Shown here one piece after another: positions 3,327 through 4,012 of a stretch of DNA of 64,000 nt. This stretch comes from Puniceicoccales bacterium (GTDB taxonomy: Bacteria > Verrucomicrobiota > Verrucomicrobiia > Opitutales > JAIRKQ01). A program made the translations under genes and the position numbers. The DNA is taken from positions 2,980 to 66,979 of the forward strand of contig JAIRON010000003.1 in NCBI GenBank assembly GCA_031257495.1, read 5' to 3'. Within the stretch, counting starts at the first letter, position 1. Each line of letters starts with the position of its first letter. The notes beneath the pieces are model-generated. The model was not told the DNA's origin, did no database searches, and was given only the letters and a program-made list of their open reading frames with translations.

Positions 3327-3926
3327 CTAGGAGTTGATAACTTCCTTCATTGCCAATGTAACCGCGCATTCGAATATTGGACAAAATTCCGATATTAAAT
3401 CTTGAATATTCGATCTAATATCCGGGAATTTACCTTCCAGAGAGTGTGCAACTTTGTCCAAGCCTGTTTTTATACCTGCCAAAAGGCCCATCATGGATTG
3501 AGTTTTTAGCAACAGATCTGGTGGGGGTAGGTTTTGCAGACCAGATTCAATCATTTGTATAATTCTTTTCAAAGGTATTAAAATTACTTTACCCGCTCTT
3601 CTTCTTTTTAATTCATTGAAAACATTTTTGAGCCTCGTGATTAATACGGAAGCTACTTGCTTAAAATAATCACAATATCCGTTTATGGCATTTAAAGTTT
3701 TTAAAGATCTCAATGACATGCTGCGCGTGAGACATGCTGATTTTAAAGTTTTTCGAAATTCGGCAGAGTCTCCCGCAGCCAAGTGTCTACCATTAAAGTG
3801 TCCTGGTTGTGGCACTAGGGCGCTGTCGACGACCCCACTAGGAGCGTCTAAAAAAAAACCACCCCCTGCCATAATGGCATCGATATTTTCCATGTTCATA
3901 GTTTCCCCCATTCGATGGAGGATCAT
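3327..3926 (-). CDS. Orphan family member 1 (shared N-terminal module); likely true start at 3899 (MNMENIDA...)
   Basis: ORF of 199 aa. From the ATGAACATG at 3899 the first ~33 aa (MNMENIDAIMAGGGFFLDAPSGVVDSALVPQPG) are near-identical to the ORF starting at 49936. The rest reads as helical by eye. TTGACA-16-TACAAT promoter lies upstream. Confidence 0.7.
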   Translation of the reverse strand: MILHRMGETMNMENIDAIMAGGGFFLDAPSGVVDSALVPQPGHFNGRHLAAGDSAEFRKTLKSACLTRSMSLRSLKTLNAINGYCDYFKQVASVLITRLKNVFNELKRRRAGKVILIPLKRIIQMIESGLQNLPPPDLLLKTQSMMGLLAGIKTGLDKVAHSLEGKFPDIRSNIQDLISEFCPIFECAVTLAMKEVINS

Positions 3927-4012
3927 TGTATCCTTTTAGGCACTTTTGTCAAATCTTTGTTTTTCGCAGCGAAATAAATCAGCCAATCAAAGATTGGCGC
4001 ATGCCGTTCCGG
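3802..4012 (-). repeat. Copy 1 of a ~211-bp dispersed duplication (upstream region + promoter + leader + first ~33 codons)
   Basis: Its reverse complement aligns by eye with 49822..50033 at roughly 80-87 percent identity. The alignment includes an identical caaagatttgacaaaa and an identical agcgccctagtgccacaaccagg. Confidence 0.85.
3900..3952 (-). promoter_or_regulatory. Sigma70-type promoter plus anti-SD leader of family member 1
   Basis: Minus strand reads TTGACA (3952-3947), a 16-nt spacer, TACAAT (3930-3925), then gatCCTCCAtcgaaTGGGGGaaact ATG. CCUCCA can pair with UGGGGG, which is the SD region. Confidence 0.6.

Follow-up and report, generated by a model that had tools for sequence, protein, structure and literature searches.

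Two kinds of described system come closest to the element considered here. A staggered-break model has been proposed for 17 of 29 inversions in Drosophila (Ranz et al., 2007; PMC1885836), and in Salmonella gene conversion between the inverted repeats tufA/tufB and rrn has been linked to chromosomal inversion (Hughes, 2000; Abdulkarim and Hughes, 1996), as far as the summary in PMC8262849 relates. The element, which we call R, is a 211-bp repeat present twice in a stretch of 64,000 nucleotides from a Puniceicoccales bacterium (assembly GCA_031257495.1, contig JAIRON010000003.1, positions 2,980 to 66,979 of the forward strand; hereafter the window, with all coordinates counted from its first letter). 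R behaves as two known things at once, a breakpoint inverted duplication and a pair of dispersed inverted repeats that recombine as tufA/tufB do. We consider it likely that R is a slice of a locus in which one orphan gene (A) precedes another (C), that its copies lie at both breakpoints of a 45.8-kb chromosomal inversion and that these copies have since recombined. An inversion bounded in this way is an ordinary kind of bacterial rearrangement.

Self-BLASTN and a MAFFT alignment paired positions 3802-4012 on the minus strand (R1) with 49823-50033 on the plus strand (R2) without a gap, 177 of 211 positions being identical (83.9%, or 83.886% unrounded; E = 6.7e-60). The preliminary description of this DNA had proposed an inverted dispersed duplication of about 211 bp, put its identity at 80-87% by eye and noted that the similarity ends abruptly. 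All of this was borne out, in the upstream and the coding part alike, save that copy 2 (211 nt) begins at 49823 and not at 49822. The two copies formed the only dispersed repeat in the window, the one other internal match being a tandem array at 48591-48899. Their longest exact runs measured 19, 23, 16 and 26 nt, the 26-nt run lying at the extreme right end. Only a few bases outside R, identity has dropped to that of shuffled sequence, from 26/26 on the right and about 80% on the left. Over 200-300 bp outside R at either end, local alignment scores were no higher than the mean of shuffled controls, and R is therefore sharply bounded. Read in gene direction, R comprises the end of gene A (last 11 codons), a promoter-like site, a leader with a ribosome-binding site and the first 33 codons of C; the upstream region, the TTGACA and -10 boxes, the leader and the codons from MNMEN to VPQPG that had been placed within the repeat were all found there. 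An Rfam search of the window returned only four transfer RNAs (tRNAs), and R matched no known RNA element.

R1 lies between the upstream region of tRNA-Thr and tuf and the body of gene C, while R2 stands directly behind gene A, with its right side fused to unrelated DNA (50034..50281, plus strand, made up of Y at 50034-50124 and X at 50125-50281). Both pairs of junctions recur unchanged in independent Logan contigs of sequencing run SRR14710907: contig L001 corresponds to window positions 429-4246 and L007 to 49534-60124, each covering one junction region at 100% identity and ending far from R. The layout of the window is thus not an assembly error. Between the copies extends the 45.8-kb segment (4013..49822), which begins with spacer S (4013..4199; the tRNA-Thr/tuf upstream region) followed by tRNA-Thr(GGT) and tuf (4200..5515, plus strand) and closes with secDF and A. 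To the left of R1 lie C and gatB, both read leftwards from R1, and to the right of R2 an open reading frame (ORF B) and a 529-aa orphan gene, both read rightwards.

The orientation of this segment with respect to its flanks differs from that implied by related metagenome-assembled genomes (MAGs). The window itself, to judge from its proteins, belongs to a Puniceicoccales (Verrucomicrobiota) MAG whose locus tags begin with LBF94_. In LBF25 (GCA_031259475.1), contig L002 carries contiguously an A orthologue, R, full-length C (81% amino acid identity) and gatB. In LBF42, contigs L003 and L004, which share an overlap of 119 identical nucleotides, together present a partial R (A-tail and promoter) from which X and the 529-aa gene are read in one direction, with S, tRNA-Thr, tuf, secE and on to rpoC following in the other; they are collinear with window positions 3934-15860 (93.3% identity) and 50125-54244. 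The relatives accordingly join A to C and tRNA-Thr/tuf to the 529-aa gene, where the window joins tRNA-Thr/tuf to C and A to the 529-aa gene. Inverting positions 4013-49822 converts the window layout into that of the relatives, with both breakpoints within R. A further contig, L006, shows the window-type joint, running from tuf and tRNA-Thr (read outwards) through S and R to a frameshifted C and gatB. All four flank combinations were found: A-R-C in L002, A-R-529 at R2 of the window, tRNA-S-R-C at R1 of the window and in L006, and tRNA-S-R-529 in L004.

In the window, L004 and L006 alike, S meets R at one and the same nucleotide; the A/R joint is likewise identical in the window and L002. As these joints are common to different lineages, both joint kinds must be older than the lineage split; the lineages differ by a synonymous divergence (dS) of about 0.14-0.36 in nusG, gatB and tuf, and their secE-rplL regions are about 93-94% identical in nucleotide sequence. 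S13 of the window is not identical in the relatives.

Because each joint is common to different lineages, R would have been duplicated a single time, in a common ancestor. Two origins can be envisaged. The inversion itself may have arisen from a pair of breaks in the A-C locus, separated by 211 bp, together with a single break in the spacer between tRNA-Thr and the 529-aa gene; after fill-in, each end of the segment would carry the sequence lying between the staggered breaks, the two copies being inverted relative to each other. Alternatively, R may have been copied ectopically and homologous recombination may have followed. Homologous recombination across the inverted copies would later have inverted the segment one or more times and, by gene conversion, passed sequence from one copy to the other, since both orientations occur among lineages that already had both joints. 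Private sites numbered 77 and 88 in LBF25 and LBF42 respectively, against 119 in the window, and the tree is near a star; LBF25 and LBF42 form the closest pair by a small margin, which mildly favours a single flip in the ancestor that they share. C would retain its own promoter and start in both orientations, and the copy beside the 529-aa gene would supply C's promoter to that gene and, in the window, would also create a chimeric ORF of 62 codons.

As with the duplications described by the staggered-break model (PMC1885836), R is ordinary unique sequence, cutting through A and C, that is present twice in 64 kb, once at each end of the segment, inverted and with sharp ends, and the segment that its copies exactly bound differs in orientation among related genomes. 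One copy leaves an intact gene and the other a truncated fragment fused to foreign DNA, again as in that model (PMC1885836). Unlike the Drosophila cases, for which end joining is invoked (PMC1885836), R resides in a bacterium, its copies have since recombined and every lineage with data has both joint kinds.

The copies themselves point to exchange, for they group by lineage or genome and not by position, as gene conversion or crossover between inverted copies predicts. In the coding part of R, R1 and R2 were 87.8% identical to each other, and their identity to the C-linked copies of L002 and L006 was 76.5-78.6%. Within the left part, the A-linked copy of L002 and the S-linked copy of L004 shared 82.4% identity (91% in the A-tail), against 70.8-78.8% for pairs between the two groups, and a 6-bp insertion was common to L002 and L004 only, being absent from R1, R2 and L006. 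Quartet sites favoured the pairing of R1 with R2 and of L002 with L004 (8 versus 3 versus 2), and those of the coding part the pairing of R1 with R2 and of L002 with L006 (6 versus 2 versus 1). In tufA/tufB, according to the summary in PMC8262849, distant inverted homologues co-evolve by conversion and an occasional crossover inverts the interior, a behaviour that predicts both the four flank combinations and the clustering by genome; for R the recombinant flank combinations are all present, and concerted evolution is seen in small numbers of sites. R is unlike that pair, as summarised there (PMC8262849), in being only 211 bp long and 84% identical, in holding no functional duplicated gene and in bounding a segment of 46 kb. 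It had been suggested beforehand that the two inverted loci recombined recently. Recombination is upheld by the four flank combinations and by the grouping of copies by genome, while its recency is doubtful, given that the copies differ by 16% and that the left junction is common to the window, L004 and L006.

Several points weigh against an inversion bounded by R. The sites informative on concerted evolution are few, as the quartet counts make plain, and copies that are now 84% identical, with no exact run longer than 26 nt, should recombine inefficiently. No single relative has both junctions, the relatives being represented by short MAG contigs and their sample containing several related populations side by side, and collinearity of the segment interior in relatives was verified over 12 kb only (on a 36.8-kb LBF42 contig). 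Among the contigs found there was neither a genome without the second R copy nor an empty junction between tRNA-Thr and the 529-aa gene, L004 already having a partial R at that place. Finally, the window-type joint of L006 stands in the LBF42 bin, so that a simple two-state picture may be incomplete. L006 and L004 both bear LBF42 locus tags, yet they contain two different tuf genes (L006 2-1138 versus L004 839-2029). The tuf of L006, in which the contig ends, has a saturated dS of about 2.0 to the tuf genes of the window and of L004, whereas dS of the adjoining gatB is ordinary (0.30-0.36); a second tuf-tRNA-Thr-S-R region, a replaced (xenologous) tuf, and a fourth population or mixed bin are all possible. 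Gene C of L006 (1561-2126) is split into ORFs of 94 and 75 aa by a 1-nt deletion in an A-run, which makes it a pseudogene or a sequencing error.

The assemblies of SRR14710907 contained window-type junctions only. Neither the 529-aa protein nor a 23-nt R pattern had a match among genome contigs, and a 31-nt promoter pattern fitting all five R copies had none among metagenome contigs, in collections that do not include this clade. A literature search found no paper describing sample SRR14710907 or its Puniceicoccales MAGs.

Gene A (LBF94_00410; 49131..49841, plus strand; 236 aa) runs into R2, which covers its last six codons and stop (the protein ends in QNGKS). R1 has no A before it and still keeps an in-frame RNGMRQSLIG followed by a stop (3979..4011, minus strand), that is, the last 10 codons and stop of an A-type gene, the true C-terminus of the A orthologue in LBF25 being QNGMRQSLIG. 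That the repeat starts within the last codons of an upstream gene, of which copy 1 retains a remnant, had been recognized from the letters alone, and agrees with these data. Within the remnant of R1, a weak hairpin is followed by a T-run at 3998-3982. Although a terminator scan found this A-tail hairpin, it folds no better than shuffles in all five copies, and we do not claim a terminator.

Such a remnant could also be left if the whole A-C unit had been block-copied to the tRNA-Thr side and to the side of the 529-aa gene, A eroding at copy 1 and the body of C at copy 2 until only the best-conserved 211 bp remained. The family does duplicate, as A and C are distant paralogues (25% identity, E = 3e-9) whose promoters have the block AAACAAA..TTTGACAAA in common (1 of 1000 shuffles), and the minus strand of S weakly resembles the promoter block of R (46 of 1000 shuffles). 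We nevertheless judge erosion of a longer copy improbable. Identity does not fade but collapses at both ends of R, S is a conserved tRNA-Thr/tuf upstream region in three lineages, Y and X are without similarity to C or R, and the flanks of the copies are merely exchanged in the relatives, which block duplication and decay do not predict. On direct comparison S had no significant homology to the 3' portion of A, nor did Y plus X to the body of C or to R, and a longer decayed duplication was rejected. The related proposal that a two-gene unit was duplicated and lost its upstream partner near tRNA-Thr is right about the unit, since A and C are contiguous in LBF25, but the loss is not supported: to the left of R1 there is nothing of A past 11 codons, the 188 bp to tRNA-Thr are a conserved upstream region at the same junction in relatives, and only 211 bp were duplicated, in association with the 46-kb inversion.

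The gene A promoter site (49079-49107) is a perfect 12/12 TTGACA-17-TATAAT, with the AAACAAA..TTTGACAAA block before it as in R, from which it follows that A and C share promoter as well as protein ancestry. In R1, the promoter-like site TTGACA-16-TACAAT (3925..3952, minus strand) matches the consensus at 11 of 12 positions and is preceded by the conserved block CGAAAAACAAAGA; in R2, TTGACA-16-CATAAT (49883..49910, plus strand; also 11/12) is the sole consensus-like plus-strand promoter between A and the 529-aa gene. The ribosome-binding site in R is purine-rich and Shine-Dalgarno-like (GGGGGA/GGGAGA). Across the five R copies, a 31-nt block comprising the A-tract and the -35 box (TTTCRCTRCRAAAAACAAARATTTGACAAAA) has 27 of 31 invariant columns as against 32 of 96 among the other columns before the start (Fisher p = 1.8e-7), and the -10-like hexamer is kept in all five. 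Selection on the expression signals, proposed from the first inspection, is supported by this contrast.

In LBF42 about 190 nt are missing, namely the coding sequence within R together with the ORF B tail (at L004 ~395-440, corresponding to window positions 49933-50124), but TTGACA-16-TATGAT is kept some 190 nt before the 529-aa gene, and that strand of the spacer has no other promoter-like site. The R copy beside the 529-aa gene is probably, on the evidence of sequence conservation, the promoter of that gene, because the site was kept in LBF42 despite the loss of coding sequence, because the window offers no other consensus-like plus-strand site and because the block is nearly invariant in five copies.

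It might be asked whether R as a whole is a functional module under selection, consisting of a promoter and a 33-residue N-terminal peptide (e.g. a secretion or targeting signal) shared by two genes, such that ORF B is a real small protein and the similarity reflects constraint. The near-invariant promoter block and its persistence beside the 529-aa gene in LBF42 speak for this, as does the predicted disorder of the N-terminus of C, export signals often being disordered. The 33 shared codons, however, evolve almost neutrally between R1 and R2 to judge from their substitutions (nonsynonymous divergence, dN, 0.13; dS 0.16; dN/dS ~0.8), and an exhaustive HMMER search of 1.84 billion representatives with a profile of C returned just four proteins (C itself, a fragment of it, an A orthologue and, with E = 2e-7 over residues 1-35, ORF B), so that the N-terminal module exists there only in C and B. 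The tail of B has no homologue, its coding part is deleted in LBF42, the Prokaryotic Genome Annotation Pipeline (PGAP) does not call it, and the gene A tail that R also includes has no role in such a module. We therefore judge a selected peptide module improbable, although its promoter half is compatible with, and part of, the inversion explanation. A shuffled N-terminal effector module (terminal reassortment) was rejected on the same search result, dN/dS ratio and deletion.

Least probable by far is an assembly or binning artefact, with the window contig or the relatives' contigs chimeric through the repeat and no real inversion, since, for all that the data are short-read metagenome assemblies of a sample with several populations 92-94% identical, that contigs break at tuf and that two different tuf genes fall in the LBF42 bin, exact runs of at most 26 nt are too short to mislead long-k-mer assemblers, the independent Logan contigs reproduce both window junction regions, and the R copies of the relatives differ by at least about 18% within diverged flanks, so that each junction is distinct and not a collapsed repeat.

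Invertons (Hin/Gin/Fim) and inversions mediated by insertion sequences (IS) resemble the present case in that inverted repeats flank a segment found both ways, with a promoter in the repeat. Invertons differ in having short exact repeats, where R is long and diverged and bounds 46 kb of core genes, and the links between promoters and genes are here the same after the flip. R was rejected as a site-specific inverton on its length and identity (211 bp at 84%), on the lack of a recombinase domain in the scanned ORFs and on a promoter that stays with C and with the 529-aa gene in both states. It was likewise rejected as a mobile element (an IS or a miniature inverted-repeat transposable element, MITE), there being two copies only, ends that are dissimilar by eye and no transposase in the scanned ORFs.

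A 9-mer, GGCAAGAGC, occurs in the 64 kb only at 49830-49838 and 50032-50040 (0.43 occurrences expected), 202 nt apart and bracketing R2. The left occurrence lies inside the A-tail of R2, where GGCATGCG[C/T]C stands in the four remaining R copies; it arises from a cluster of four substitutions and gives A a stop five codons earlier than in the LBF25 orthologue, whereas the right one spans the right joint of R2. As the left occurrence is within the R unit, the pair is not a target-site duplication of R, and it may reflect a templated mutation or be a microhomology footprint.

The segment between the copies carries, in addition to tRNA-Thr and tuf, tRNA-Trp, secE, nusG, rplKAJL, rpoBC, rpsL-rpsG-fusA, the S10/spc/alpha operons, nadK, recD2, ruvB, tRNA-Pro, glgA, rsmG, recJ, secDF, yajC, a 335-aa orphan gene and A. 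The recombination genes ruvB, recJ and recD2 are thus within it. Plain GC skew follows the coding strand and was uninformative; only the skew at third codon positions taken gene by gene (GC3 skew) gave a usable signal, which for plus-strand genes was positive between 4 and 34 kb, close to zero from 35 to 51 kb and negative (-0.04 to -0.31) from 50 to 60 kb. The genes converge on a point near 35.3 kb. The change in GC3 skew and the converging genes, at about 34000-52000, suggest a replication terminus or other switch point, and rsmG (gidB) lies at 42657-43349. The segment therefore probably straddles a replication-related switch point, judging from GC3 skew and gene orientation over 64 kb in which skew is confounded with transcription strand. 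If so, the ribosomal and RNA-polymerase operons would stay co-directional with replication either way, and a flip would be tolerated.

Inversions spanning the replication origin or terminus reportedly produce the 'X-alignments' between related bacterial genomes that Eisen et al. and Tillier and Collins are said to have described in 2000. The R segment is similar in that the sign of GC3 skew changes in or next to it and a flip would keep most genes co-directional with replication; it differs in being seen in 64 kb, with the confounding just mentioned. A more far-reaching version of the inversion bounded by R, to which we give little credence, would have the staggered breaks arise without a mobile element or ribosomal RNA repeat and still yield a reversible switch, both orientations of the 46-kb block, with its tuf, rpoBC and almost all of the ribosomal-protein operons, coexisting in natural populations, tolerated because the block straddles the terminus, and a promoter being handed to a second orphan gene.

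Gene C (LBF94_00140; 3327..3899, minus strand; annotated at 190 aa), whose first 33 codons are in R1, encodes a protein whose N-terminal ~63 residues, including those of the shared codons, are predicted to be disordered, the remainder forming a four-helix bundle in an AlphaFold model; the bundle is generic, with no significant match in the PDB. ORF B (49936..50124, plus strand), with 33 codons from C and 29 that are unrelated, is absent from LBF42, and PGAP skips it, gene A and the 529-aa gene having consecutive locus tags. It is probably a chimeric by-product, a meaningless ORF. The 529-aa gene (LBF94_00415; 50282..51871, plus strand) stands in LBF42 divergently beside tRNA-Thr/tuf, behind the partial R. 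Its leader, X, is 82% conserved in LBF42, while Y has no counterpart there. The encoded protein has a proline-rich, low-complexity N-terminus, no Pfam match and a sole homologue, in LBF42 (70% identity), and the gene evolves fast relative to the surrounding housekeeping genes. Homologues of A, C and the 529-aa protein were found only in two or three sister MAGs, and Pfam searches with the A, B, C, 529-aa and 335-aa proteins returned nothing meaningful.

Two further features of the segment were observed. The 335-aa orphan ORF (47916-48923) contains a 123-bp tandem repeat (48591-48899; 2.5 copies with 91% matches), which codes for a repeated acidic unit of 41 residues. The tRNA-Pro at 38685-38761 has the anticodon AGG according to ARAGORN and was confirmed as a tRNA by Rfam; this anticodon is unusual for tRNA-Pro in bacteria.

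Read as the scar and the substrate of an inversion, an odd duplicate of a promoter and 33 codons would be explained without any new regulatory or mobile system. It would provide a small, clean case from uncultured Puniceicoccales in which 211 bp of unique sequence bound the inversion of a core translation and transcription block. Repeats of this kind would evolve in concert, and a breakpoint duplication can give rise to a chimeric ORF and put an existing promoter to use for the gene next to it. In annotation, ORF B would be a gene fragment, and the breaks in synteny at this place in related MAGs would be real and not misassemblies.

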